NCBI GenBank assembly: GCA_045567365.1
Contig: JBJLDC010000012.1
Location: forward strand, 30,809-94,808
From: Candidatus Pelagibacterales bacterium
GTDB taxonomy: Bacteria > Pseudomonadota > Alphaproteobacteria > Pelagibacterales > AG-422-B15
Length of the DNA stretch: 64,000 bases
Reading direction: 5' to 3'
Part shown: positions 3,428 to 63,150 of the stretch, one piece after another
Numbering within the stretch: position 1 is the first letter of the stretch
Layout: every line of letters starts with the position of its first letter
Notes under the pieces: model-generated
The model's input: the letters and a program-made list of their open reading frames with translations, nothing else
Told to the model about the DNA's origin: nothing
Database searches by the model: none
Made by a program: the position numbers and the translations under genes

Positions 3428-3520
3428 ATGAAATATTTATCTCATTGTTTTAGTTAGATAAGTTAGTAGATTAGGGTATTATTATTGTAAAATATATATT
3501 TATTTATTAAACAAATCATT

Positions 3521-3919
3521 ATGAACTCAATTAAAGATATCTTAAGAAATAGCTCTTTAAGACCTACAAAGCAAAGAATTATGATAGGTAAGCTATTATT
3601 TAATGACACTGACAAGCATGTGACAGCTGAATCTTTATATCGTGAACTCACAGCTTCTGAGCAAAAAATATCTTTAGCAACCGTTTATAATACTCTGCAT
3701 GATTTCTGTGAAAAAAAACTATTAAAGAAAGTAACAATAGACACAGAAAAAGTTTATTTTGATACAAATACCAGTCCGCACCATCACTTTTACTCTGATA
3801 ATGAAAAATTATTAATTGATATTTCTAAAGATAAAATAAAAATTCAGGGACTGCCTAAGGCTCCTAAAGGCAAAAAAATCAAAGATGTAGAGCTGATCGC
3901 TCACTTAACAGATAACTAA
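3521..3919 (+). CDS. irr: Fur-family transcriptional regulator, Irr type (iron response regulator)
   Basis: 132 aa Fur-family winged-helix protein. It has FDTNTSPHHHFY (the Irr HHH motif) and lacks the C-terminal CxxC pairs of classical Fur. It is divergent from fabA, as irr is in Rhizobiales. Confidence 0.75.
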   Translation: MNSIKDILRNSSLRPTKQRIMIGKLLFNDTDKHVTAESLYRELTASEQKISLATVYNTLHDFCEKKLLKKVTIDTEKVYFDTNTSPHHHFYSDNEKLLIDISKDKIKIQGLPKAPKGKKIKDVELIAHLTDN

Positions 3920-3922
3920 GTT

Positions 3923-3941
3923 ATTGATAATAGTTATCAAT
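3923..3941. promoter_or_regulatory. Fur-box-like perfect palindrome ATTGATAA-TAG-TTATCAAT
   Basis: The arms are 8 bp with a 3-nt spacer, and the core TGATAATAGTTATCA is one mismatch from the 7-1-7 Fur box TGATAAT-N-ATTATCA. It lies 4 nt after the irr stop, so it could instead be a weak irr terminator hairpin. Confidence 0.4.
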
Positions 3942-4023: not shown

Positions 4024-4443
4024 ATGACTTCATTAAAAGAAAGTAAAACACTTGATAATTTAAAAGCTGCCTTTGCTGGAGAAAGCCAGGCGAATAGAAG
4101 GTACCTATACTTTGCTCAAAAAGCAGATGTTGAAGGTCATAACGATGTTGCGGCTGTATTTAGATCTACTGCTGAAGGTGAAACTGGACATGCTCATGGT
4201 CACTTAGAATTTATGGAAGAAGTGGGTGATCCTGCAACTGGTGAGCCAATTGGTTCAACTGAAGATAATCTGAAAGCAGCTATTGCTGGAGAAACACATG
4301 AATACACCGATATGTATCCTGGTATGGCAAAAACAGCGAGAGAAGAGGGATTTGACGAAATTGCTGACTGGTTTGAAACTTTAGCTAAAGCTGAAAAATC
4401 TCATGCAGGTAAATTTCAAAAAACTCTAGACTCGATCGAATAG
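4024..4443 (+). CDS. Rubrerythrin-family diiron protein (ferritin-like domain only, no rubredoxin domain)
   Basis: 139 aa with N-terminal LKAAFAGESQANRRY and a second LKAAIAGETHE repeat, giving the E...ExxH x2 ligand pattern. AGGAG lies 6 nt upstream of the ATG. Confidence 0.85.
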   Translation: MTSLKESKTLDNLKAAFAGESQANRRYLYFAQKADVEGHNDVAAVFRSTAEGETGHAHGHLEFMEEVGDPATGEPIGSTEDNLKAAIAGETHEYTDMYPGMAKTAREEGFDEIADWFETLAKAEKSHAGKFQKTLDSIE

Positions 4444-20281: not shown

Positions 20282-21574
20282 TTGAAGCAAGGAAAGCTAA
20301 ATACACAAGATAATATTACTTTAAAACTAAGAACCCTTATTTTTTTTAATTGGATTGCAATTATTGGTCAATCATTAGCGGTTTTTGTTTCTTACTCAAT
20401 AATTGAAGTAGATTTTAATTTAGTCGCAACTATATCCTTAATTTTTTTATTGTTATTATTAAATATTTTTTTAACTCTAAGATTTCCAATTACCAAAGCT
20501 CTAAATTTTAATGAAATCACTTTCTATTTATTGTTTGACCTCTTGCAGTTGATATCTTTGTTATATTTAACAGGAGGATTAACAAATCCTTTTTGTATCT
20601 TAATTTTAGTACCCATAGTTATTTCTTCTACTTATCTTGATTTAAAGAGAACTATTTTGATCTGTACTGCTTCGATTATTTCTTTAAGTATTTTACTTTT
20701 TTTTTACATGCCAATAAGTAGTAATTTAATAAATTTTAATAGTGATAGCTTCTCTAGAGAAGAAATCTTTTCAATTTGGGGAGCGTTAATTATTACACTT
20801 ATTTTTATGTCTGCTTATTGCTATCGAACAGCTAGTGAATCACGAAAAGCAGGTGAGGCTCTTAGAGAAACTCAAATGGCATTGTCAAATGAGGAAAAAG
20901 TATCTGCCCTTATGAGTTTAACAGCTGCTGCCGTTCATGAGCTTGGAACTCCATTGTCTACCATTTCTGTGGTATCAAAAGAACTTGTTGGCAATGTTAA
21001 AAAGAATGATGTTAATTATGATGATTTACAATTAATTCAAACTCAAGTTAAAAGATGCGCTGATATCTTAAAGAGACTTAGAACTACTAAGTTTGTGAGG
21101 GATAGTGATGAGTTTCTAAATGAATTTACTTTTACAAGTTTAATAAATGAGATTTTAGAAGATTATTCGAATGAAAAAATTGAAGTATCAATTAATGCTG
21201 ATGAAATTTTTTCTGAAAAGAATATTACTTTTTCAAGAGTTCCTGAGGTTATACAGTCTTTATCAAATATTATAGATAATGCATTTAAATATGCGAAAAA
21301 TAAAATCGTAATCAATTTGAAATATGCAGAAAAGTACATAATTGTTGAGATAATTGACGATGGAAATGGGTTCTCACCAGAAATATACGCATTGCTTGGA
21401 GAACCATATGTCCGAAGAAGTATCGATAAAGAAGATAAAGGTTTAGGATTAGGTCTATTTATTTCAAAGAATTTACTCAGTAAATCGTATGGTGATATTG
21501 AGTTTTTAAATTATAAGCCCAATGGAGCATGTGTAAGAATATTTTTGAATAAGAAAGAATTAAACATAAAATAA
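20282..21574 (+). CDS. regB: Redox-sensing histidine kinase RegB/PrrB/ActS
   Basis: Multi-TM N-terminus containing GGLTNPF (the RegB quinone-site motif GGxxNPF), the H-box AAVHELGTPL, a Cys in VKRCADIL (redox-box position), and an HATPase domain. A TTG start is assumed. Confidence 0.78.
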   Translation: MKQGKLNTQDNITLKLRTLIFFNWIAIIGQSLAVFVSYSIIEVDFNLVATISLIFLLLLLNIFLTLRFPITKALNFNEITFYLLFDLLQLISLLYLTGGLTNPFCILILVPIVISSTYLDLKRTILICTASIISLSILLFFYMPISSNLINFNSDSFSREEIFSIWGALIITLIFMSAYCYRTASESRKAGEALRETQMALSNEEKVSALMSLTAAAVHELGTPLSTISVVSKELVGNVKKNDVNYDDLQLIQTQVKRCADILKRLRTTKFVRDSDEFLNEFTFTSLINEILEDYSNEKIEVSINADEIFSEKNITFSRVPEVIQSLSNIIDNAFKYAKNKIVINLKYAEKYIIVEIIDDGNGFSPEIYALLGEPYVRRSIDKEDKGLGLGLFISKNLLSKSYGDIEFLNYKPNGACVRIFLNKKELNIK

Positions 21575-21578
21575 TTAT

Positions 21579-22109
21579 ATGAATGAAGAAAATTCACTTT
21601 TAATTTTAGATGATGACGAAATTTTTTGTAAGAGACTTCAAACAGCAATGAGTCGTAAAGGTTTTAACTCTTATGGAGCTTATTCCATAAGAGAAGCCAA
21701 AGACTTACTTAAAGAGTCTATTCCAAAATATGCTGTGATTGACTTAAGGCTGGGGGATGGTAATGGGCTCGAAATTGTATCAATTATTTCAAAACAAAGA
21801 AAAGATAGCAAAATTATAATATTGACTGGTTATGGAAATATTCCTACAGCTGTCGCAGCAGTTAAAGAAGGAGCTTGTGATTATTTATCAAAACCTGCTG
21901 ATGCAGATGATATTGAGGCTGCTTTACGTTCACCATATGAGAAAATTCCTGATCCTCCAGCAAATCCTATGTCGGCAGATCGTGTAAAATGGGAACACAT
22001 TCTTAGAGTGTATGAACAATGCAATCGGAATGTTTCAGAGACTGCTCGAAGGCTTAAAATGCATAGAAGGACTTTGCAGAGAATTCTTCAAAAAAAATCT
22101 CCAAGATAA
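21579..22109 (+). CDS. regA: Response regulator RegA/PrrA/ActR
   Basis: 176 aa with a receiver domain plus the short Fis-type HTH NVSETARRLKMHRRTLQRIL. Confidence 0.87.
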   Translation: MNEENSLLILDDDEIFCKRLQTAMSRKGFNSYGAYSIREAKDLLKESIPKYAVIDLRLGDGNGLEIVSIISKQRKDSKIIILTGYGNIPTAVAAVKEGACDYLSKPADADDIEAALRSPYEKIPDPPANPMSADRVKWEHILRVYEQCNRNVSETARRLKMHRRTLQRILQKKSPR

Positions 22110-23315: not shown

Positions 23316-23558
23316 ATGCGAAATTTAATTCATTTGATTTGATATGTAAACAAAATGTACTATGTGAGATTATATATATCAATGCGACAAACCGTCAAAT
23401 TTAAATATTATAAAAATATCATATTAATCAATATCTTAATAAATACTAATGATAGATTTTAATTTAAAAAGATATTATTTTTTGTGTACTTTATTATGTT
23501 TTTCCAATAATTTACATTCGATCCGAAGATGCTCTCAATTTAGGTAACTATCCATTTT

Positions 23559-49778: not shown

Positions 49779-49829
49779 TTAGTCATTTATTATCATATAG
49801 TTATCAATCAAAATTCACTATTTCGTTTC

Positions 49830-49857
49830 ATGACAAATTGGCATTTAAGTCTTATTG
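49830..49857 (+). promoter_or_regulatory. Shared amt upstream motif, copy 1: ATGACA-aat-TGGCAT-ttaa-GTC-tta-TTG
   Basis: It has the same spacing and 18 identical specified positions as the copy at 51280-51307. It contains the imperfect inverted repeat ATGaCA/TGgCAT and begins 79 nt before the amt ATG. Confidence 0.5.
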
Positions 49858-49908
49858 AGGGTCTTAAGCAGGATGTTATTAAAGCTTATAATTTAGGGGG
49901 ACATTTAA

Positions 49909-51186
49909 ATGTTTAAAAACATAATCATTTATATTTTTATTGCTACTCTCACTTCTTCATCTGCATATGCAGGCGTTGACCAAGAAGTAGCTTATATTTT
50001 TAATACTTTTTCTTTTTTGGTTTGCGGATTCTTAGTTATGTGGATGGCAGCAGGATTTTGTATGCTGGAGTCTGGTTTAGTTACAACTCGTAGTGTTTCA
50101 ACTATCGCGGCTAAAAATATTGGAAAATTTGCTATTGTTTCTGTTGTTTTTTACCTCGTAGGTTACAACCTTGGATATGGTATACCAGAAGGTGGATATA
50201 TTGGAACTTTTTCAACTTGGACAGATACATCTTCAATTGAAACTGGATATTCCGGTGCATCAGATTGGTTCTTTCAAACATTATTTGTTTGTGCAACATG
50301 TTCAATAGTTTCAGGAGCAGTTGCAGAAAGAATAAAAATTTGGCCATTCTTTTTATTTTCGGCGATACTCGGTGGATTTATCTATCCCATTCAAATGGGA
50401 TGGGAATGGGGCGGAGGCTGGCTTGATGCATTAGGCTTTGCTGATTTTGCTGGCTCAACACTTGTTCATGCATGTGGAGGTGCAGCAGCACTTGCGGGAA
50501 TAATGCTTTTGGGTCCACGTATTGGTAGATACAGCACAAAAGGTGAAGTGCAATCAATGGAGCCTTTTGCAGCTTCTTCAATTCCATTAGTTGCTCTTGG
50601 AACTTTTATCCTATGGATGGGATGGTTTGGTTTTAATGGTGGCTCTCAGTTAGCACTTGGCTCTTATGAGGATGCAACAGCAATGTCTACAATTTTCATC
50701 AATACTCAACTTGCCGCATGTGGAGGGTGTCTATCTGCTGCAGTAGTTACCCGTTTAGTTGGTGGTAAAACTGATGTTATTATGATGTTAAATGGTTGTT
50801 TAGCAGGATTGGTTTCGATCACTGCTGAACCATTAATGCCATCTCCAATTCTAGCAATTATAATCGGCGCAGTTGGTGGAATAATAATGTACGTTGGTAC
50901 TAATTTTCTAAATAGTATGAAGTTAGATGATGTAGTTGGTGCAATTCCTGTTCATATGTTTGCAGGAATATGGGGCACAATGATTGTACCATTGTCTAAT
51001 CCTGACACCTCATATGTTACTCAATTTATAGGTGTTGCAGCTGTAATTGCTTTTGTCTTTATTGTCTCTTACATAGTCTTATTGATTATAAAAAATACTA
51101 TAGGACTTAGAATCAGTGCAGAAGCAGAAAAACTGGGTACTGACAAATCGGAAGTAGGAGTTGTAGCGTACTCTATTAGAGATTAA
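49909..51186 (+). CDS. amtB: Ammonium transporter (Amt family), copy 1
   Basis: 425 aa with a signal peptide, 11 TM helices, and Amt signatures (DFAGSTLVH, GWFGFNGGS, VGAIPVH). Confidence 0.93.
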   Translation: MFKNIIIYIFIATLTSSSAYAGVDQEVAYIFNTFSFLVCGFLVMWMAAGFCMLESGLVTTRSVSTIAAKNIGKFAIVSVVFYLVGYNLGYGIPEGGYIGTFSTWTDTSSIETGYSGASDWFFQTLFVCATCSIVSGAVAERIKIWPFFLFSAILGGFIYPIQMGWEWGGGWLDALGFADFAGSTLVHACGGAAALAGIMLLGPRIGRYSTKGEVQSMEPFAASSIPLVALGTFILWMGWFGFNGGSQLALGSYEDATAMSTIFINTQLAACGGCLSAAVVTRLVGGKTDVIMMLNGCLAGLVSITAEPLMPSPILAIIIGAVGGIIMYVGTNFLNSMKLDDVVGAIPVHMFAGIWGTMIVPLSNPDTSYVTQFIGVAAVIAFVFIVSYIVLLIIKNTIGLRISAEAEKLGTDKSEVGVVAYSIRD

Positions 51187-51205
51187 CCCTTAACTTTTAA
51201 AATTG

Positions 51206-51239
51206 CCCCTCAATCTTAAATGATTGAGGGGTTTTTTTT
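51206..51239 (+). terminator. Rho-independent terminator after amt copy 1
   Basis: CCCCTCAATC-ttaaat-GATTGAGGGG is a perfect 10-bp stem followed by T8. Confidence 0.85.
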
Positions 51240-51256
51240 ATTCTATTTTTTTGTTA

Positions 51257-51307
51257 ATGCCATTTTGGCAAAAAGTTTAATGACATGATGGCATAAGAGT
51301 CGAGTTG
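51257..51307 (+). promoter_or_regulatory. Shared amt upstream motif, copy 2 (51280-51307), plus an extra palindrome ATGCCA-ttt-TGGCAA (51257-51271)
   Basis: ATGACA-tga-TGGCAT-aaga-GTC-gag-TTG aligns with copy 1 without gaps. A second ATGNCA-N3-TGGCAW palindrome starts 23 bp upstream. Confidence 0.5.
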
Positions 51308-51368
51308 TTTCTTTGTTTTATCCAAATGATAGTGAGTTAACTTAAATTTTTTAAACGGAGAAATTAGA

Positions 51369-52637
51369 ATGATTAAAAGAATAGTTTTATACTCATTACT
51401 ATTCACTTCTTTATTAAGTGTTAGTGCTTATGCAGGAACAGATGATGAAACTGCTTATGCTCTGAACACTTTATTATTTTTAGTAAGTGGATTCTTAGTA
51501 ATGTTAATGGCTGCAGGGTTCTGTATGCTTGAATCAGGAATGGTTACATCTAAAAGTGTATCCACAATTGCCGCAAAAAATATTGGGCTATATTCAATTG
51601 CAGGACTTATGTTCTGGGTTATAGGATACAATGTTGCTTATGGTATACCAGAAGGTGGATATATTGGATCATTCACCCCATGGAGTGATGCTTCCGCAAT
51701 TGATACAGGCTATTCTGATGGATCTGATTGGTTTTTCCAAATGGTTTTTTGCGCAACAACAGTTTCAATTGTATCAGGAACATTAGCTGAAAGAATCAAA
51801 ATATGGCCTTTCTTTTTGTTTGCTGCAATTTTAACTGGAATTATTTATCCAATTGAAATGGGTTGGCAGTGGGGAGGCGGTTGGTTATCAGCTGCTGGCT
51901 TCTCAGATTTTGCTGGTTCAACTCTAGTGCACGCGGCGGGTGGTGCAGCAGCATTGGCTGGTGCGATCGTACTAGGTCCTCGTCTTGGTAGATTTAGTAA
52001 TGGTAAATTAGTACCATTTGCTAGTTCGTCTATTCCATTAGCAACACTTGGAACATTTATTTTATGGTTCGGCTGGTTCGGCTTTAATGGTGGATCTCAA
52101 TTAGCTCTAGCTGGTTTTGAAAATGCTACTGCCGTAGCTACCATTTATATTAATACAAATCTTGCTGCTTGTGCTGGTGTTATGACTTGCGCTGTTATTA
52201 CTAGATTAATAAATGGTAAGACAGATGTTATAATGATGTTAAATGGTGCGCTGGGTGGACTTGTTGCTATTACAGCTGAGCCACTTACTCCAACTCCATT
52301 AATGGCTATTATTATTGGTTCAATTGGTGGAATTATTGTAATACTTGGTACTCAAGCTCTTAACAAATTTCAGATTGATGATGTTGTAGGGGCTATTCCA
52401 GTTCACTTATTTGCTGGTATATGGGGTACTCTTGCTGTTCCTCTAACTAATAGTGGTACATCTTTTGGACCACAATTACTTGGTACTGCTTCAATATGTG
52501 CTTTTGTATTCGTAGTTTCATTCATTGTCTGGTCAATTATGAAAGCAACTATAGGTATAAGAATAAGCGAAGAAGCTGAAAAAGAAGGAACTGATATAGC
52601 GGAAACTGGTGTAACAGCTTACGCAATCAGAGACTAA
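51369..52637 (+). CDS. amtB: Ammonium transporter (Amt family), copy 2
   Basis: 422 aa and collinear with copy 1. By eye, roughly two-thirds or more of aligned residues are identical. GGAG RBS present. Confidence 0.93.
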   Translation: MIKRIVLYSLLFTSLLSVSAYAGTDDETAYALNTLLFLVSGFLVMLMAAGFCMLESGMVTSKSVSTIAAKNIGLYSIAGLMFWVIGYNVAYGIPEGGYIGSFTPWSDASAIDTGYSDGSDWFFQMVFCATTVSIVSGTLAERIKIWPFFLFAAILTGIIYPIEMGWQWGGGWLSAAGFSDFAGSTLVHAAGGAAALAGAIVLGPRLGRFSNGKLVPFASSSIPLATLGTFILWFGWFGFNGGSQLALAGFENATAVATIYINTNLAACAGVMTCAVITRLINGKTDVIMMLNGALGGLVAITAEPLTPTPLMAIIIGSIGGIIVILGTQALNKFQIDDVVGAIPVHLFAGIWGTLAVPLTNSGTSFGPQLLGTASICAFVFVVSFIVWSIMKATIGIRISEEAEKEGTDIAETGVTAYAIRD

Positions 52638-53745: not shown

Positions 53746-53760
53746 GAACAAAACAAGAAC
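53746..53760 (+). promoter_or_regulatory. Alphaproteobacterial SOS (LexA) box GAAC-N7-GAAC
   Basis: GAACaaaacaaGAAC is an exact match to the GAAC-N7-GAAC / GTTC-N7-GTTC direct-repeat LexA operator of alphaproteobacteria. It lies immediately after the putative -10 and 18 nt before the umuD ATG. Confidence 0.7.
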
Positions 53761-53777
53761 AAATTAGTATTTAATCA

Positions 53778-54185
53778 ATGTTATTAACCTTTTATAAAGA
53801 GGGTGTGGAATGTGGATTTCCATCTCCAGCTAGGGATTTTACCGAGAGCTCTATAGATTTAAATGAAGAGCTGATTCATCGCCCCAACTCAACTTTTGTC
53901 GTTAGAGCACGTGGTCATTCAATGATTGATGCAGGCATATCACCTGGTGATTTAATTATTGTTGATCGAAGTTTAAAGCCACGTCATGGATCAGTAATAG
54001 TTGCAGTATTAGATGGAGAACTCAGTATTAAGATTCTTAATATAAAAAGTAAACATGATATTTCATTAGAATCAGCAAATAAAAACTATGAAGATGTTCA
54101 TGTCTCAGAAGAAATGGATTTTATGATTTGGGGTGTCTGTACATATGTAGTTCACGATCTGAAAAAACTTAATTCTTCTTTATGA
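53778..54185 (+). CDS. umuD: Translesion polymerase V accessory subunit UmuD (S24 LexA-like peptidase)
   Basis: The ECGFPSPA block contains the Cys-Gly cleavage site. The Ser nucleophile is in GHSMIDAG and the Lys is in LSIKIL. An in-frame TAA two codons upstream fixes the start. Confidence 0.88.
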
Positions 54186-55441
54186 AAAAAAAAGTTTTTG
54201 CACTCATAGACTGTAATGCATTTTATGTTTCTTGTGAGAGAGTGTTCAATCCAAAATTAAATAATAAACCTGTAGTAGCACTGTCCAATAATGATGGATG
54301 CATTATTGCTAGATCTAAAGAAGCAAAAGCTCTTGGTATTAAGATGGGAGTTCCACTTTTTAAAGTTAAAGACATTGTAGAAAGAGAAAATGTAATTGTA
54401 TTTTCATCTAACTATACTTTGTATGCAGATATGTCACGACGAGTTATGAATATAATATCTGAGTTTACTCCAAGTATTGAAGTTTATTCAATTGATGAAG
54501 CATTTATTGAGCTAACCAATATGAATGTAGACTATGAGTCTTATGCTCGTCATATGAGAAAAGTAATTTTACAATATACAGGTATTCCAGTTAGTATTGG
54601 TATTGCCTCAACAAAGACTCTAACAAAAGTAGCAAATCATATCGCTAAAGATGATGAGTCTTTAGAAGGTGTATGCTCACTAATTCAACACGAGAATTTA
54701 GATCAAGTTTTAGAAGATACCAACGTCGCAGATGTATGGGGTGTTGGACGACAGCTGTCTAAGAAGTTAATAGCGAACGGTATATTTAATGCCAAACTAC
54801 TGAAAAATTGTGAAGATGCATGGGTTCGAAAAATGATGAGTGTTAATGGATTAAAAACAGTATCTGAATTAAGAGAGATATCTTGTCTAGATCTGGAGGA
54901 AACTTCTGCTACTCGAAAAAGCTGTTGCACTACAAGATCATTTGGAAAACCATTGATAAATCTTGAAGATATAGAGCAGGCAGTTACCACGTTTGCTCGT
55001 CGCGCAACAGAGAGAATTAGAGGTGAAAATTTAATTGCTTCCACAGTCTCTGTTTTCTTAAGAACAAATCCTTTTGATAGAAACCGTTATTATTCAAATA
55101 GTTCAACCACAACGTTGAGTTATCCAACTTATGATACGGTGCAGATAGTGAAGATAGCCTTACAGTTAACTAAAATAATTTTTCGAGAAAATTATAAGTA
55201 TAAGAAGGCAGGTGTTCTATTAAGTGGGCTTTATGAAAAAGGCACTGAAACAAAAGATTTATTTTCTGAGACAAGATATAGATCACCAAAATTAATGTCT
55301 GCGGTTGATCAAATTAACGAGCGTTATGGGAGTGATACAATTCAAATAGCAACAGAATGTCAGATGGGCAAATGGAAACAAAAAAGAAAGAATTGTACTC
55401 AGAGTTATACCACCCAACTTGATAATGTTTTATTGATTTAA
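54182..55441 (+). CDS. umuC: Y-family DNA polymerase V catalytic subunit UmuC
   Basis: 419 aa with N-terminal [16 protein letters not shown], the SIDEAF catalytic motif, and an ATGA overlap with umuD. Confidence 0.9.
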
Positions 55442-57680: not shown

Positions 57681-57708
57681 GTAAGGCCTAGTTTAACTAG
57701 GCCTTACA
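57681..57708. terminator. Hairpin between the convergent SBP gene and livM (GTAAGGCCTAGT-ttaa-ACTAGGCCTTAC)
   Basis: Perfect 12-bp stem with a 4-nt loop. The loop is the livM stop region and the right arm encodes the last livM codons. There is no clear U-tract on either strand. Confidence 0.45.
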
Positions 57709-59066
57709 ACCTTTTCAGGAATCACACCTCTAGGCATAAATCTCAAGGTTATTAATAATATTGCTCCCATAATAAATAAACGCATATGAGGAGCACTTGC
57801 AATTAAATGCATTCTAATTGGGTCACCATAATCCATACCGCTTGTTACTAAACTAATAAATGCAATAGAAATAGGTTCTGCTTCGATCCACATGAACCAT
57901 ATAAAGAAACCTCCAAATATTGACCCTAAGTTATTTCCACTACCACCTACAATCACCATAACCCAAATTATAAAAGTAAAACGTAATGGTTGATAGGTAC
58001 CAGGAGTAAATTGTCCATCTAAGGTTGTTAACATAGCTCCGGCAATCCCAATGATAGCTGACCCAAGAATAAAGACTTGTAAATGCTGGCCAACTATATT
58101 TTTACCCATAGCACTTGCTGCAACTTCATTATCTCTAATTGCTCTTAACATTCTCCCCCAAGGAGAATTTAAAGCTAGTTGGCTTAAGAAGAATAAAATC
58201 ACAAGAACAGAAATGAACAAACCTGCGTAGCAAAGTTTGACATATATACTTGATCCTTCAATGACAAGTTTATTCAAGAGATCTTGTCTGCCAGATATAG
58301 TTTCAATCGCTGAAAGTCTTGATGAATTTAACCATTCAATAATATTTATAAACCATTCTGATTCTTGTAACCTTATTTCATAAGGCACTGGTCTTGGAAG
58401 GCCAGTTACATTTTTAACGCCTCTAGACAGCCAGTCTTCATGCTTTAAAACTGCAATAACTATTTCAGAAATTCCAAGAGTTGCTATTGCTAAGTAGTCT
58501 GAGCGTAAACCTAAAGTAACCTTACCAATAATCCATGCGAGCAAAGCAGCTGCAAATGCAGCAGCAATCCAAGAAAAAACAATAGGCATTCCAAGTCCAC
58601 CAAGAAATCCAGTTTTAGCAGGGTTAATATCTTCAATTAAGTCTATAGACGGTCCATAAAACTTACTTAAACCAATAGCAGCTAATAAAATAATGAAGAC
58701 AATAAAAAATCTTTTTTTGAAAATAGATTTTATATTTTTTGACACATAGAAAATAAAAAATGATGCAACAATTACAATCAATAGACTAATTAATATACCA
58801 GTACCGCCAACAGACCATGCTTCGTAGATTGGTTGATGAGATATAAGAACAGCTACAAGCCCACCCAGAGCAGTAAATCCCATTACTCCTGCATTAAACA
58901 AGCCTGCGTAACCCCACTGTAGATTAACACCCATAGCCATTATCGCTGAAATAATGCATAGATTAAATATACCAATTGAAACAGACCAAGACTGGCCAAT
59001 ACCGACAATTATCAATAAAAATGCCATAAATGAGAAGGCAAGATGAGTTCTATATCTTTGAATCAT
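57693..59066 (-). CDS. livM: Branched-chain amino acid ABC transporter permease
   Basis: 457 aa polytopic membrane protein of the LivM type with an internal insertion. Its start overlaps the livH stop. Confidence 0.85.
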   Translation of the reverse strand: MIQRYRTHLAFSFMAFLLIIVGIGQSWSVSIGIFNLCIISAIMAMGVNLQWGYAGLFNAGVMGFTALGGLVAVLISHQPIYEAWSVGGTGILISLLIVIVASFFIFYVSKNIKSIFKKRFFIVFIILLAAIGLSKFYGPSIDLIEDINPAKTGFLGGLGMPIVFSWIAAAFAAALLAWIIGKVTLGLRSDYLAIATLGISEIVIAVLKHEDWLSRGVKNVTGLPRPVPYEIRLQESEWFINIIEWLNSSRLSAIETISGRQDLLNKLVIEGSSIYVKLCYAGLFISVLVILFFLSQLALNSPWGRMLRAIRDNEVAASAMGKNIVGQHLQVFILGSAIIGIAGAMLTTLDGQFTPGTYQPLRFTFIIWVMVIVGGSGNNLGSIFGGFFIWFMWIEAEPISIAFISLVTSGMDYGDPIRMHLIASAPHMRLFIMGAILLITLRFMPRGVIPEKVVRPS

Positions 59067-60082
59067 AGTGTCTTACCTCTAAAAATTCCAGTCGGTCGAA
59101 TAATTAAAACTATTACTAAGATGATAAATGATATAGCAAATTTATAATCGGTAGATAAGAATTGCATTAATCCACTAGGCTCAAGATTAGTAGGTAGTAA
59201 ATACATGAAAAACTTTTTATAAGCATACGTAAGCATAACTTCTGAGAATGCAATTATATAGCCACCTGCAACAGCACCTAATGGATTTCCAATTCCTCCA
59301 ACAATCGCAGCTGCAAACATTGGAAGTAATAATTGAAAATATGTAAATGGTTTAAAACTTTTATCAAGGCCATATAAAACTCCAGCAATTGTTGCTAGCA
59401 TGCCAACTATAATCCATGTGATCATCACGACTCTATCGGGATTAATTCCAGACAAAAGAGCAAGATCTTCATTATTTGAGTAAGCTCTCATTGATTTACC
59501 CATCTTCGTTTTTTGCAAAAAATAAAATAACATCATCATCGTTATGAGAGCTATTACAATTGTAAGTACTTGTGTTGACTTAATACTCAATCCTTCTGGA
59601 AGACCTGTATATGATTTAAATTCAACTGCTTTTATAATAAATTTTTCTCCATCAAAAAAAGTTCTATCTTTGGGTCCAATTATAAATCTTACGATTGCAT
59701 TCATTATGAACATAACTCCAACCGAGACAATCATGAACACAACTGGTTGACTCTTCTGTTCTCTATAAAATTTATAAATAACTCTATCAGTGAGTAAGCA
59801 AAAGCCAGCAGTTAAAGCCATTGCAAATGGTAAGGCAATCAAAGCAGTAGGGAGCACACCAGCAGTTAAACCCCAAGATTGGAATAGCCATGTTATAAGA
59901 ATGGCAATCATTGTTCCAAATGCCATCAAGTCACCATGAGCAAAATTTGAAAATCTTAAAACAGCATACACAAGTGTAATACCAAGAGCTGCAAGCGCCA
60001 GCTGTGATCCATAAGATAGAGCAGGAACAATTACAAAATTTGCCAATAGTATTATTGCATTAAGTAAGTCGTAGTTTTCCAT
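59063..60082 (-). CDS. livH: Branched-chain amino acid ABC transporter permease
   Basis: 339 aa LivH-type permease. Confidence 0.85.
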   Translation of the reverse strand: MENYDLLNAIILLANFVIVPALSYGSQLALAALGITLVYAVLRFSNFAHGDLMAFGTMIAILITWLFQSWGLTAGVLPTALIALPFAMALTAGFCLLTDRVIYKFYREQKSQPVVFMIVSVGVMFIMNAIVRFIIGPKDRTFFDGEKFIIKAVEFKSYTGLPEGLSIKSTQVLTIVIALITMMMLFYFLQKTKMGKSMRAYSNNEDLALLSGINPDRVVMITWIIVGMLATIAGVLYGLDKSFKPFTYFQLLLPMFAAAIVGGIGNPLGAVAGGYIIAFSEVMLTYAYKKFFMYLLPTNLEPSGLMQFLSTDYKFAISFIILVIVLIIRPTGIFRGKTL

Positions 60083-60084
60083 TA

Positions 60085-60792
60085 TTATCCGCCTAAAAAA
60101 GCCTTTCTGACCTCTGAATCATTAAGAAGTTCAGAACCTTTCCCTGTAAATTTATTTTTTCCAGCAACTAATACATATCCATAGTCAGCAATATTTAGAG
60201 CCTGTTTAGCATTTTGTTCGACAATTATTATTGCAACTCCAGTTTTTTTAATTTCAATAATTTTATCAAAAAGTTCATCCATAACGACAGGAGAAACGCC
60301 AGCAGTGGGCTCATCGAGCATCAAAACATTTGGCTGTGTCATCAATGCTCTTCCAACTGCAACTTGCTGTCTCTGTCCCCCAGATAATTCCCCTGCTACT
60401 TGTTCTTTCTTTTCGTAAAGAATTGGGAATAACGAATACATTTCCTCAAATGTTTGATAGAGATCGTCATCTCTGAGATAAGCTCCCATCTCTAAATTTT
60501 CTTTAACTGTTAATTCGTTAAAGATATTCATTGTTTGTGGAACAAATGATATTCCAGACGCGACTCTATCTTGAGGAGATAAATTAGAAATATCTTTTTC
60601 ATCAAGAAATACTTTTCCCTGACTAAGTTTTAACATGCCTAGCATTGCTTTCATGGCAGTGGATTTTCCTGCACCATTAGGTCCTACAATTACGGAGATT
60701 TCACCTTTATTAACTGAAATACTACAATCGTTTAAAATATTTTCTCCACCATATCCACCAACTAGATTTTGACTATAGAAGAAGTTACTCAT
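60085..60792 (-). CDS. livF: Branched-chain amino acid ABC transporter ATP-binding protein
   Basis: Walker A GPNGAGKST, signature LSGGQRQQ, and Walker B LMLDEPT. Confidence 0.88.
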   Translation of the reverse strand: MSNFFYSQNLVGGYGGENILNDCSISVNKGEISVIVGPNGAGKSTAMKAMLGMLKLSQGKVFLDEKDISNLSPQDRVASGISFVPQTMNIFNELTVKENLEMGAYLRDDDLYQTFEEMYSLFPILYEKKEQVAGELSGGQRQQVAVGRALMTQPNVLMLDEPTAGVSPVVMDELFDKIIEIKKTGVAIIIVEQNAKQALNIADYGYVLVAGKNKFTGKGSELLNDSEVRKAFLGG

Positions 60793-61553
60793 ACCGCACC
60801 ACTTCTACCTAAATAAGCTGAGATTACTTCTTCATTTTTTTTAACATCCTCAATCTTGCCTTCAGTTAAAACTTTCCCTTCAGACATGACAATGACTTTA
60901 CTGCAGAGTTTACTGATAAACTCAATATCGTGTTCAATCATACAAAATGTATAACCTTTTTCTTGATTCAGTTTTAAAATTACCTCAGCAATTTCATTGA
61001 GAAGAGTTCTATTAACACCTGCTCCAACTTCATCTAATAAAACAATTCTAGCATCTACCATCATTGTTCTTCCAAGTTCTAATAATTTTTTTTGGCCGCC
61101 AGATAAGTTGCCAGCCAGTTCATAACTTAGATGTGACAGATTTAAAAATTCAATAACTTCAAATGCTTTATCTTTTATTTTTTTTTCTTCTTCTTTTATT
61201 TTTTTTCGATTAATCCATGCATTCATTAATTTTTCACCAGATTGAAATCCAGGAACAACCATTAGATTTTCAAGTACTGTTAGTTTTGAGAATTCATGAG
61301 CAATTTGAAATGTTCTTAATATTCCTTCATAAAATAATTGATGTGATGGTATGCCAGTAATATCTTTATTTCTAAAATATATTGATCCACTTGAGGGCTC
61401 AATAGTTCCACAGATTACGTTAAATAATGTTGTTTTTCCTGCTCCATTTGGTCCAATCAAACCAGTAATTGAGCCTTGCTCAATTTCAAGTGAAACACTA
61501 TCAACAGCACGGATGCCACCAAATTGTTTGCTAAGATTTTTTATTTCAAGCAT
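60789..61553 (-). CDS. livG: Branched-chain amino acid ABC transporter ATP-binding protein
   Basis: Walker A GPNGAGKTT, signature LSGGQKKLLE, and the C-terminal LivG-type tail. Confidence 0.88.
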   Translation of the reverse strand: MLEIKNLSKQFGGIRAVDSVSLEIEQGSITGLIGPNGAGKTTLFNVICGTIEPSSGSIYFRNKDITGIPSHQLFYEGILRTFQIAHEFSKLTVLENLMVVPGFQSGEKLMNAWINRKKIKEEEKKIKDKAFEVIEFLNLSHLSYELAGNLSGGQKKLLELGRTMMVDARIVLLDEVGAGVNRTLLNEIAEVILKLNQEKGYTFCMIEHDIEFISKLCSKVIVMSEGKVLTEGKIEDVKKNEEVISAYLGRSGAV

Positions 61554-61589
61554 CTTTAAAACAATACGCTAGTGATTACATTGGAGCAA

Positions 61590-62495
61590 TTACTTATTAT
61601 CATTTGATGTTTGATTTAAATAAAGAGCAAATAAAATAAGGCTTAAGGAAAGCAGTACATTTATTTCAATTGCTTCACCTAAGAAAATAGCTCCAGAGAA
61701 ATAAGCTATCAAAGGAATAAGAAAATTAATTAATGATAAGAAAACAGGTCCTTTAGTTTCAATAATTTTAAAAAATAAAAGGTTTGCAATTGCTGTTGCA
61801 AATATACCTTGGATTGAAACAGATAATATTGCTTTAGAATTAAATTCATTAAGCCAAAAAGGTTCAAAGAATAATGCAAAAGGTAAGATCCATATAACAC
61901 TCGCTATCGTTACTCCAGTAGCAAGAGAAATAAAATTTACTTCGGGAACAAGTTTAGTTAAAACTGCATTCAGGCCATAGCATGTGGCAGCTAACAAAAC
62001 AATTAGCTGACTTATTATTTCAATTGAATTTCCTCTTCCTATTTGTGTAATAGTGTCAAAGCCAAATAGTATCAATATTCCACAAAATGCTATAATGAAA
62101 CTAAGTACTTTCTTAAAATTTATAATTTCATTTTTTAAAATAATTGCACTTAGTGCTAGGGTAAGTAGGGGCATAGGAGACATTAATACTCCTGCTAAAC
62201 CTGCATTAATGTATATTTCTGCAGAGGAAATTAATGAAAAAGGTATTGCCAGCCCAAAAGCCCCAAGAATAAAATAAAAAAGAATTAGTTTCGGCTTAAG
62301 AACTAGTTTTTGATTCTGCAGTTTCATAACTACATATAAAATTATTGACGCCATCAAAAGTCTTAAAAAAACATTTGTTATTGGACCAATCTCTTCAACT
62401 GCCAGTTTGATAAATAAAAAATTAACTCCCCAAATAGTTGCTAAGGAAAGTAAAAATATCCAGCTTGTAAAACTTGTTTGATTTATTTGTTTCAT
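61590..62495 (-). CDS. DMT-superfamily (EamA) transporter
   Basis: 301 aa with 10 TM helices in two EamA repeats. Confidence 0.8.
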   Translation of the reverse strand: MKQINQTSFTSWIFLLSLATIWGVNFLFIKLAVEEIGPITNVFLRLLMASIILYVVMKLQNQKLVLKPKLILFYFILGAFGLAIPFSLISSAEIYINAGLAGVLMSPMPLLTLALSAIILKNEIINFKKVLSFIIAFCGILILFGFDTITQIGRGNSIEIISQLIVLLAATCYGLNAVLTKLVPEVNFISLATGVTIASVIWILPFALFFEPFWLNEFNSKAILSVSIQGIFATAIANLLFFKIIETKGPVFLSLINFLIPLIAYFSGAIFLGEAIEINVLLSLSLILFALYLNQTSNDNK

Positions 62496-62547: not shown

Positions 62548-63150
62548 ATGAGAACTATATTCATTTTTATTGCTTTATTATCGATGCTCACTAGCTGTGC
62601 CAGTAAGCCACCAGATAATCAGGAAAATATCTGTAAGATATTTAATGAAAAATCATCTTGGTATCGATTAGCCAATAAATCAGAAGAAAAATGGGGTGCC
62701 CCAATTCATGTTCAAATGTCAATCTTAAGGCAAGAGTCTTCCTTTCAGAATAGAGTAAAGCCAGAACGTGAAAAATTATTTGGAGTTATTCCTTGGAAAC
62801 GTAAATCGAGTGCCTTAGGTTATACTCAAGCAATAGATGGAACATGGGACTGGTATAAAAAAGAAAATAATAAACCACTTGCTTCAAGAGTTAATTTTGC
62901 CGATGCTGTAGACTTTACAGGCTGGTATATAAATAAAACAACTTCAATAAATAAAATCACTAAAAGTGATACTTATAACCAATATCTAGCCTATCATGAA
63001 GGGCATGGCGGTTTTAAAAAAGGAACTTATAAGAGTAAAGAGTGGTTAATTGAGGTTGCTCGCAAAGTTAAGATACGAGCTGATCGATATGAGTCTCAAT
63101 TAGCTGAATGTGAAAATGATTTTAATAAAAAATTTCTAGGTATTTTTTGA
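62548..63150 (+). CDS. Lipoprotein with a lytic-transglycosylase (SLT-like) motif
   Basis: Lipobox LTSCAS, SILRQESSFQ (SLT catalytic Glu-Ser context), and GYTQAIDGTW. Confidence 0.6.
   Translation: MRTIFIFIALLSMLTSCASKPPDNQENICKIFNEKSSWYRLANKSEEKWGAPIHVQMSILRQESSFQNRVKPEREKLFGVIPWKRKSSALGYTQAIDGTWDWYKKENNKPLASRVNFADAVDFTGWYINKTTSINKITKSDTYNQYLAYHEGHGGFKKGTYKSKEWLIEVARKVKIRADRYESQLAECENDFNKKFLGIF

Follow-up and report, generated by a model that had tools for sequence, protein, structure and literature searches.

The stretch of DNA described here, referred to throughout as the window, is a 64-kb segment (64,000 nucleotides) of a SAR11 (Pelagibacteraceae) chromosome with a G+C content of about 31%, in which dnaA, dnaN, recF and gyrB are found at 13-19 kb. 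SAR11 is the ocean's most abundant heterotroph, and the manner in which it controls nitrogen uptake without a PII/NtrBC cascade has been unsettled since 2013, the earlier proposals being confined to unspecified riboswitches and NtrX. The window bears on this question through two collinear ammonium transporter genes, amt1 and amt2, and through a short imperfect inverted repeat (a dyad, hereafter the box) that stands in the leader of each. The features that define the locus are the following:

49909..51186, forward strand: amt1, ammonium transporter of 425 amino acids (PF00909, E = 1e-96; TIGR03644 marine subtype, 546 bits for a cut-off of 514)
51369..52637, forward strand: amt2, ammonium transporter of 422 amino acids (PF00909, E = 2e-102; TIGR03644, 581 bits)
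51205..51240, forward strand: intrinsic terminator of amt1, a hairpin at 51205-51232 (11-bp stem with 6 G-C pairs) followed by a T-run
49830..49844, forward strand: box 1 (amt1), ATGACAAATTGGCAT, with the dyad core TGACA-AAT-TGGCA at 49831-49843; kept in the orthologous leaders L001, L003, L014, L020, L081-L088 and L177-L186
51257..51271, forward strand: box 2 (amt2, distal), ATGCCATTTTGGCAA; kept in L001 and L015
51280..51294, forward strand: box 3 (amt2, proximal), ATGACATGATGGCAT, its centre 23 bp from that of box 2; kept in L001 and L015

The two transporters are 66% identical to each other, and the amt1 protein is 99% identical to its counterpart in the single-cell genome AG-912-N08. A previous account of this DNA, made from its letters alone (the sequence-only reading), had described two collinear amt genes with a terminator between them, and the gene coordinates proved to be as it gave them, with a terminator hairpin between the two genes. 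It had also described a motif common to the two leaders and a third copy of its dyad 23 bp upstream of the second motif; all of these are indeed present, the motif as ATGACAAATTGGCATTTAAGTCTTATTG at 49830-49857, 79 nt ahead of the amt1 ATG, and as ATGACATGATGGCATAAGAGTCGAGTTG at 51280-51307, 89 nt ahead of the amt2 ATG. The exact 15-mer pattern ATGACA-N3-TGGCAT occurs at only two sites in the 64-kb window, both of them in amt leaders, and the more permissive TGNCA-N3-TGNCA at only three, again all in amt leaders, while about 0.5 would be expected from composition; allowing up to one mismatch to the dyad yields zero further intergenic sites in the window. In 722 kb of SAR11-like DNA, 21 of the 22 matches to the strict dyad lie no more than 300 nt upstream of amt open reading frames (ORFs), where about 0.12 would be expected, and the sole outlier falls within a coding ORF; loci added after this count brought further boxes in the same places. 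These counts bear out the proposal that the motif is a functional cis-element and not a chance resemblance, and the search of related DNA finds it enriched in amt leaders, not at background frequency. The shared box is very probably a real and specific DNA operator: a concrete, mutable element whose consensus and geometry are defined and which occurs with high specificity at the amt genes of this locus and, as described below, at P-II.

Across 20 distinct boxes, taken from lineages that share 67-99% identity in their Amt proteins, the consensus reads nTGaCAwnTTGGCAn. Seven positions (G3, C5, A6, T10, G11, C13 and A14) are invariant, and two more, T2 and G12, are kept in 19 of the 20 boxes. The box precedes every first amt gene and most of the second ones in syntenic relatives, at an Amt identity of only 67-84%, and footprinting of the amt leaders across relatives thus recovers it in leaders that are otherwise unalignable around it. 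Its start is held at 78-90 nt before the ATG. An ATTG stands invariably 10 nt after the box in all first-gene leaders (as ATTGAG or ATTGTG) and is represented by GTTGTT in the leaders of the amt2 type; the latter also carry the second box 23 bp upstream (window, L001, L015), and the second-gene variant has the left half CGCCA. The 28-nt extent originally assigned to the motif does not survive this comparison, as its GTC varies in relatives and only the dyad and the TTG are kept. As a separate observation, leader types can be swapped between orthologues, one amt2 orthologue (84% identical) being preceded by a single-box leader of the amt1 type.

The order common to relatives is HupE, peptidyl-prolyl isomerase (PPIase), DUF3604, amt (or amt-amt), dienelactone hydrolase, umuD and umuC. 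The number of amt genes at this syntenic locus varies by lineage, with one or two after DUF3604, and with or without a P-II gene and a DJ-1/PfpI gene (L015, L081 and L014 compared with the window, L006 and L083-L088). No P-II ORF was found after either amt gene of the window, nor among the 54 scanned of its 59 ORFs of at least 100 amino acids (all but the 5 at 57693-62495 and 62548-63150). The earlier remark that neither window amt gene is followed by glnK is thus upheld. It does not extend to the lineage, since syntenic SAR11 relatives have a divergent P-II gene at this very place, with a box of its own:

L083:3516-3866, reverse strand: P-II
L088:3354-3704, reverse strand: P-II
L006:1061-1411, reverse strand: P-II
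L177-L186, at about 3501-3851: P-II

The protein encoded by these genes is 116 amino acids long and of the GlnB/K type, with the T-loop tyrosine (...ELYRGEEY), and its gene diverges from the tandem amt pair; one P-II protein cluster occurs on more than 260 contigs and bears the NCBI annotation Pelagibacterales, and all P-II homologues looked up share this gene context. The glnK-amtB operon arrangement was accordingly not encountered, with no P-II found among the scanned window ORFs and the relatives' P-II pointing away from amt. Where the spacer between P-II and amt is long (270-330 nt, in three sequence groups), it contains two boxes, the first some 70-85 nt away from the start of P-II and the other at the usual position before amt, and one P-II-bearing group has a third, near-perfect box, TGCCATATTGGCA, ahead of the second amt gene. 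The presence of boxes at amt, amt and P-II indicates that the element marks a small nitrogen-related regulon; the loci compared contain no glnA, gltBD, ntrX or urease genes. The window's own lineage either lost P-II or never had it. Cultured SAR11 are reported to lack PII and NtrBC and to possess only sigma-70 and sigma-32 (PMC3870248, PMC13198564), and to that extent the earlier statement that SAR11-type genomes lack PII and sigma-54 agrees with the literature; for the syntenic relatives its PII part fails, and the occurrence of P-II at this locus in many SAR11 lineages runs counter to the general claim that SAR11 is without PII.

The conserved TTG, which lies 11 nt after the end of the box, suggests where the promoters may be. 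The candidate elements are:

49854..49859, forward strand: ATTGAG hexamer, 10 nt after box 1, in which TTG at 49855-49857 is the putative -35; the spacing is kept in first-gene leaders
49877..49882, forward strand: TATTAA, candidate -10, 16 nt after TTGAGG, picked by eye; TATAAT at 49887-49892 is an alternative
51304..51309, forward strand: GTTGTT hexamer, 10 nt after box 3, with the putative -35 TTGTTT at 51305-51310; the spacing is as in the amt1 leader
51328..51333, forward strand: GATAGT, candidate -10, 17 nt after TTGTTT; the same putative geometry is seen as TTGAGA-17-GATATT in L006, L083 and L088

In most leaders, the conserved TTG (TTGAGG, TTGAGA, TTGTGA or TTGTTT) would fit as a -35 element with a weak -10 (TATTAA, GATATT, GATAGT or TAGATT) 15-17 nt later. 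Should the TTG be the -35, the box would be centred near -53. Only about 17 nt separate the amt1 terminator from box 2, and the amt2 promoter therefore cannot lie wholly upstream of the boxes.

Several established nitrogen-control sites are lacking from these leaders. The NtrC site TGCACC-N5-GGTGCA is absent from both amt leaders; for a sigma-54 promoter (TGGCAC-N5-TTGCW), the TGGCA is present but GC/TTGC at the required spacing occurs in no leader. The NtcA pattern was also tried and gave no fit in the amt leaders. The claim that no known nitrogen-regulator site fits thus stands for NtrC, NtcA and sigma-54; it needs amending in that a redox regulator's site, that of RegA/PrrA, does fit the core of the box. 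The corresponding two-component system is encoded in the window itself:

20282..21574, forward strand: sensor kinase of the regB/prrB/actS redox type (NCBIfam equivalog NF033792, 401 bits for a cut-off of 350)
21579..22109, forward strand: response regulator of the regA/prrA/actR type, the best candidate for the protein that binds the box (NCBIfam equivalog NF033791, 276 bits for a cut-off of 250)

RegB (20282-21574) displays the quinone-site motif GGLTNPF, the H-box AAVHELGTPL and a cysteine in VKRCADILKRL. The C-terminal 57 amino acids of RegA align to the DNA-binding domain of PrrA (PDB 1UMQ, E = 2e-25), and its helix-turn-helix, NVSETARRLKMHRRTLQRIL, differs from that of PrrA by a single residue, N to K; this K in the turn (RRLKMHRR for RRLNMHRR) is found in 76 of 79 SAR11 RegA sequences (L097-L176). 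Chromatin immunoprecipitation sequencing (ChIP-seq) of Rhodobacter capsulatus RegA delivered 33 15-mers of the form GCGNCA-N3-TGNCGC, such as GTGACAATTTGTCCC (cydA), CTGCCAAAATGTCGC, CCGTCATTTTGGCGG and GCGTCAATATGGCGC (PMC5359404), and these four are nearly superimposable on the SAR11 boxes. The core GNCA-N3-TGNC recurs without deviation in all 20 SAR11 boxes and in 8 of the 33 R. capsulatus 15-mers, and the inner consensus GNVRDNHYSNC fits 19 of the 20 boxes. The ChIP motif and the SAR11 box are both asymmetric, with a stronger right half, and in the second-gene variant the left half (CGCCA) is entirely canonical for RegA. When scoring uses only the 11 inner columns of the R. capsulatus matrix, a post hoc choice, the amt1 box ranks first among 63,986 window positions, box 2 seventh and box 3 fifty-fourth. 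Only four two-component systems are reported from SAR11, RegB/RegA and NtrY/NtrX among them, next to the two sigma factors sigma-70 and sigma-32 (PMC13198564); RegA is known to take part in the control of nitrogen fixation genes and to interact with NtrX (PMC5359404; PMC3870248 ref. 47).

On this basis, the shared motif may be a DNA operator bound by RegA (PrrA/ActR), a reading to which a probability of roughly 0.45 can be given. A dimeric helix-turn-helix regulator would bind the 13-15 bp imperfect dyad just upstream of the sigma-70 promoter of each gene, every transcription unit (amt1, amt2 and, in relatives, the divergent P-II) having its own box. Bound near -53, the regulator could touch RNA polymerase or block its upstream contacts, and as the two amt2 boxes are 23 bp apart, about two helical turns, cooperative binding would be possible. 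The regulator would be the RegA of the RegB/RegA redox system, encoded 28 kb upstream in the window; RegB would phosphorylate it according to the state of the quinone pool and would thereby set the transcription of amt, and of P-II where present, by activation or repression. Nitrogen uptake would in this way be coupled to the energy and redox status of the cell. In kind, the box is a variation on an established type of regulatory site and not a new sort of system. As a candidate binder can be named and its gene is present in the window, the question is directly testable.

Several observations weigh against RegA as the binder. Under the complete 15-column RegA matrix, the boxes reach no better than ranks 488-3334 among window positions, and the restriction to inner columns was chosen after these full-matrix ranks were known. 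None of the 20 boxes matches the full RegA consensus SSGNVRDNHYSNCSS or the RegR consensus GNGRCRTTNNGNCGC, as the outer G/C that three published consensuses require is replaced by T/A: the SAR11 boxes have T2 (19 of 20) and A14 (20 of 20), while R. capsulatus sites have C2 (24 of 33) and G14 (29 of 33, never A). Published RegA-family motifs are moreover described as degenerate. The intergenic surroundings of regBA in 80 metagenomic SAR11 loci (412 kb) contain zero strict or loose boxes, and there is thus no sign of the autoregulation seen in Rhodobacter. RegA occurs throughout the sampled SAR11 loci, whereas the box is confined to this one amt locus and other amt paralogs have other leaders. 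In 60 GC-rich alphaproteobacterial loci, the RegA core shows no enrichment upstream of amt (4 observed for 18 expected by length), and a literature search returned nothing relevant linking PrrA/RegA with amtB. That boxes occur together at amt and P-II points to a regulator of nitrogen and not to one of redox metabolism. Finally, a sigma-70 consensus scan found zero matches of at least 9/12 in either amt leader, and the putative promoter positions on which the proposed geometry depends were accordingly read by eye from aligned leaders.

The K in the helix-turn-helix of RegA is a possible cause of the altered flank preference. A bolder proposal builds on it, and as a whole it is speculative and rather unlikely: RegB/RegA would have been rewired in the NtrBC-less SAR11 lineages to drive ammonium uptake and, in those that have it, P-II, with energy and redox state as the primary input in place of glutamine/PII; the N-to-K change would have shifted the flanks from CG...CG to TG...CA; and a second palindrome in other amt leaders, TGCA-N5-TGCA (see below), would be the site of NtrX, the two Fis-type regulators dividing the amt paralogs between them. 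If RegA is indeed the binder, SAR11 nitrogen uptake is tied to energy status.

The box could instead be the operator of a regulator other than RegA, such as NtrX, a LysR-type Nac-like protein, an amino-acid sensor of the Lrp/AsnC type or an uncharacterised protein; this is a genuine, if doubtful, possibility. LysR sites are dyads of the form T-N11-A that come in pairs about two turns apart, and Lrp/AsnC sites are 13-bp palindromes of 5-3-5 format. The TG-N9-CA of the box fits the loose LysR pattern, and the 23-bp spacing in amt2 resembles LysR recognition/activation pairs, but neither the window nor the flanks of the locus in relatives contain a LysR or AsnC gene. A different regulator would also account for targets (amt and P-II) that form a classic nitrogen regulon, for the RegA-defining G/C flanks missing in 20 of 20 boxes and for the empty surroundings of regBA in the 80 SAR11 loci. 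NtrX has been proposed as the Pelagibacter nitrogen regulator (PMC3870248), and its published sites share CA-Nx-TG with the CAW-N-WTG of the box (PMC9223101); those sites, however, are CAA-N2-5-TTG or GCA-N9-TGC, whereas the box has a spacing of N1 and a different frame. Among the published motifs compared, it is only the RegA family that shares both the exact core and the spacing.

That the conserved bases are simply a core promoter is improbable. The left half (ATGACA, TTGTCA or TTGACA) agrees with TTGACA in 5-6 of 6 positions and could serve as an xTGACA -35 element, with the conserved ATTG, 17-18 nt downstream, contributing a WATTGW -10 at 17 bp; alternatively TTGGCA, at 5 of 6, could be the -35 hexamer. 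Yet most copies of this supposed -10 (AATTGA, TATTGA or AGTTGT) are missing the crucial T at -7 or A at -11, and no consistent -10 follows TTGGCA at 17 nt. Neither the window's 18 other intergenic regions nor some 700 kb of further SAR11 DNA contain the dyad, and as it does not recur at other promoters it is not a general sigma-70 element. A sigma-54 promoter fares no better, the spacing GG-N10-GC being absent and SAR11 being reported without sigma-54. The symmetric conservation of the half-sites, and the reversed orientation of the copy relative to P-II, suit a dimer site better.

The sequence-only reading had left the choice between a protein operator and an RNA element undecided, and it is the operator that the comparisons favour. 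That the motif works within the mRNA, as an element of the leader that resembles a riboswitch or is bound by a protein, is very improbable, although Smith et al. speculated on novel riboswitches for Pelagibacter amt genes, close amt paralogs do have tandem glutamine riboswitches, and the two boxes of the amt2 leader can pair with each other, as can a U-rich stretch with the Shine-Dalgarno region. RNAalifold, applied to 8 diverse leaders, returned zero conserved pairs. The single-sequence folding z-scores of 4 leaders are -0.03, -1.64, +1.25 and -2.33, a folding energy no better than that of shuffles in two of the four, and all four structures are unrelated. Rfam, at the gathering score on the window and at E<5 on the leaders, gave no more than weak hits, with E values of 0.07 or above, and the majority of these lie over the amt1 terminator. 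At the variable middle position of the dyad half-sites the combinations are A/G, U/G or C/A, with no covariation, and the amt1 terminator leaves no space for a promoter upstream of box 2. The pairing in the amt2 leader involves GUUUCUUUGUUU (51305-51316) and AAACGGAGAAAU (51352-51363, including the Shine-Dalgarno sequence), with a whole-leader minimum free energy of -23 kcal/mol (z = -1.6); it is not kept in other leader types, and under the proposed promoter model its upstream arm would be untranscribed. The least credible explanation, a functionless remnant of gene duplication, draws on the 66% identity of paralogs whose leaders could have been co-duplicated, and is disfavoured by leaders that are otherwise unalignable while the box stays invariant at 7 positions in 20 instances from several lineages, by the copy adjoining the unrelated P-II gene and by the fixed spacing to ATG and TTG.

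The box is one of several solutions found ahead of SAR11 amt genes. Smith et al. (2013) reported strain HTCC1062 to lack PII and NtrBC and proposed NtrX and unspecified riboswitches (PMC3870248); in this strain SAR11_0818 (amtB) and SAR11_1310 respond differently to nitrogen limitation (PMC3870248), and the intergenic regions ahead of these two genes appear in the list of Meyer et al. (2009), who defined no motif there. The nearest type to the Amt proteins of the window is hupA-amtB (SAR11_0818), with 75-77% identity (L007-L010), and its leaders have the different palindrome TGCA-N5-TGCA. This second, 13-bp palindrome, (A)TGCA-N5-TGCA(T), lies 75-93 nt before genes of the hupA-amtB type (L008:2839, L010:2839, L011:1410, L013:1456) and, in leaders of the riboswitch type (L090:3724, L093:3728, L094:3738), precedes the first glutamine aptamer by about 60 nt; in the 722 kb, ATGCA-N5-TGCAT has 8 occurrences upstream of amt and 3 at other places. 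It reads CAA-N3-YTG, which is loosely NtrX-like. Amt paralogs 76-79% identical to amt2 are preceded by two tandem RF01739 aptamers, at L090:3793-3851 (59.8 bits) and 3864-3918 (59.3 bits), and likewise in L004, L005, L017, L018 and L091-L096. Close amt paralogs are therefore found under at least three leader types: the present box, tandem glutamine riboswitches and the second palindrome. As leaders of the SAR11_0818 type have a different palindrome, the idea of the sequence-only reading that one site versus two could underlie the differing behaviour of amt paralogs does not map onto the published HTCC1062 pair. An equation of the window pair with SAR11_0049/0050 of HTCC1062, reported unchanged under nitrogen limitation, was rejected because PMC11796062 groups these two with sensor-type Amts and because the synteny differs (regB is SAR11_0447 in HTCC1062).

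Other sites in the window deserve mention in their own right. The sequence GCGACAAACCGTCAA, at 23384-23398, lies 1.3 kb downstream of regA, in a 243-nt spacer from which an unknown 399-amino-acid gene and an RND/MMPL transporter gene diverge; its left flank is the canonical GCG, it scores second in the window against the full R. capsulatus RegA matrix, and a simple pattern scan of the 80 regBA loci gave no counterpart. Past the amt pair, GAACAAAACAAGAAC (GAAC-N7-GAAC) at 53746-53760 stands in the 83-nt spacer ahead of umuD-umuC (53778-55441) and has the format of the alphaproteobacterial LexA/SOS box. A perfect 8-3-8 palindrome, ATTGATAA-TAG-TTATCAAT, at 3923-3941 between a Fur-family gene (3521-3919) and a rubrerythrin gene (4024-4443), is probably the operator of the adjoining Fur-family regulator. 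Thirteen of its bases (ATAGTTATCAATC) recur at 49797-49809, about 20 nt upstream of the amt1 box; this recurrence, which comprises one half-site only and is poorly conserved in L001, may be due to chance.

Among known systems, the glnK-amtB genes under NtrC and sigma-54 likewise have upstream dyads that control an ammonium transporter together with P-II, and the SAR11 box contains the TGGCA of the -24 element; in those systems P-II is co-transcribed upstream of the transporter, while it is divergent from amt in the SAR11 relatives and was not found among the scanned ORFs of the window. The tandem glutamine riboswitches (RF01739) of other SAR11 amt paralogs stand where the box does, in the leader, and presumably likewise fit uptake to nitrogen status. 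They act by an RNA mechanism, whereas the box is read at the DNA level and the window leaders are without an aptamer; the covariance model gave no match at the gathering score in the window, and the amt leader of L090, used as a positive control, gave 59.8 and 59.3 bits. The sites of NtrX (CAA-N2-5-TTG in Brucella/Sinorhizobium, GCA-N9-TGC in R. sphaeroides) are palindromes with CA...TG as in the box and are recognised by a regulator with a Fis-type helix-turn-helix, but the CAW-N1-WTG of the box lies outside the published N2-5 and its frame is unlike GCA-N9-TGC. By comparison with the sites of RegA, PrrA, ActR and RegR, the SAR11 box has TG...CA at its outer positions in place of the CG...CG of Rhodobacter and Bradyrhizobium, it is associated, in the loci compared, with ammonium transporters and P-II and not with respiratory and photosynthetic genes, and it is missing from regBA, unlike in autoregulated Rhodobacter. 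Both elements are nonetheless 15-bp imperfect inverted repeats built on GNCA-N3-TGNC (GNC-N5-GNC); in both the centre is rich in A/T and the right half is the stronger, and single sites can be near-identical, as in GTGACAATTTGTCCC of R. capsulatus cydA and GTGACAAATTGGCAT of SAR11. A cognate regulator with a PrrA-type helix-turn-helix is encoded in the window, and RegA is known to multimerise on DNA and to use multiple sites.

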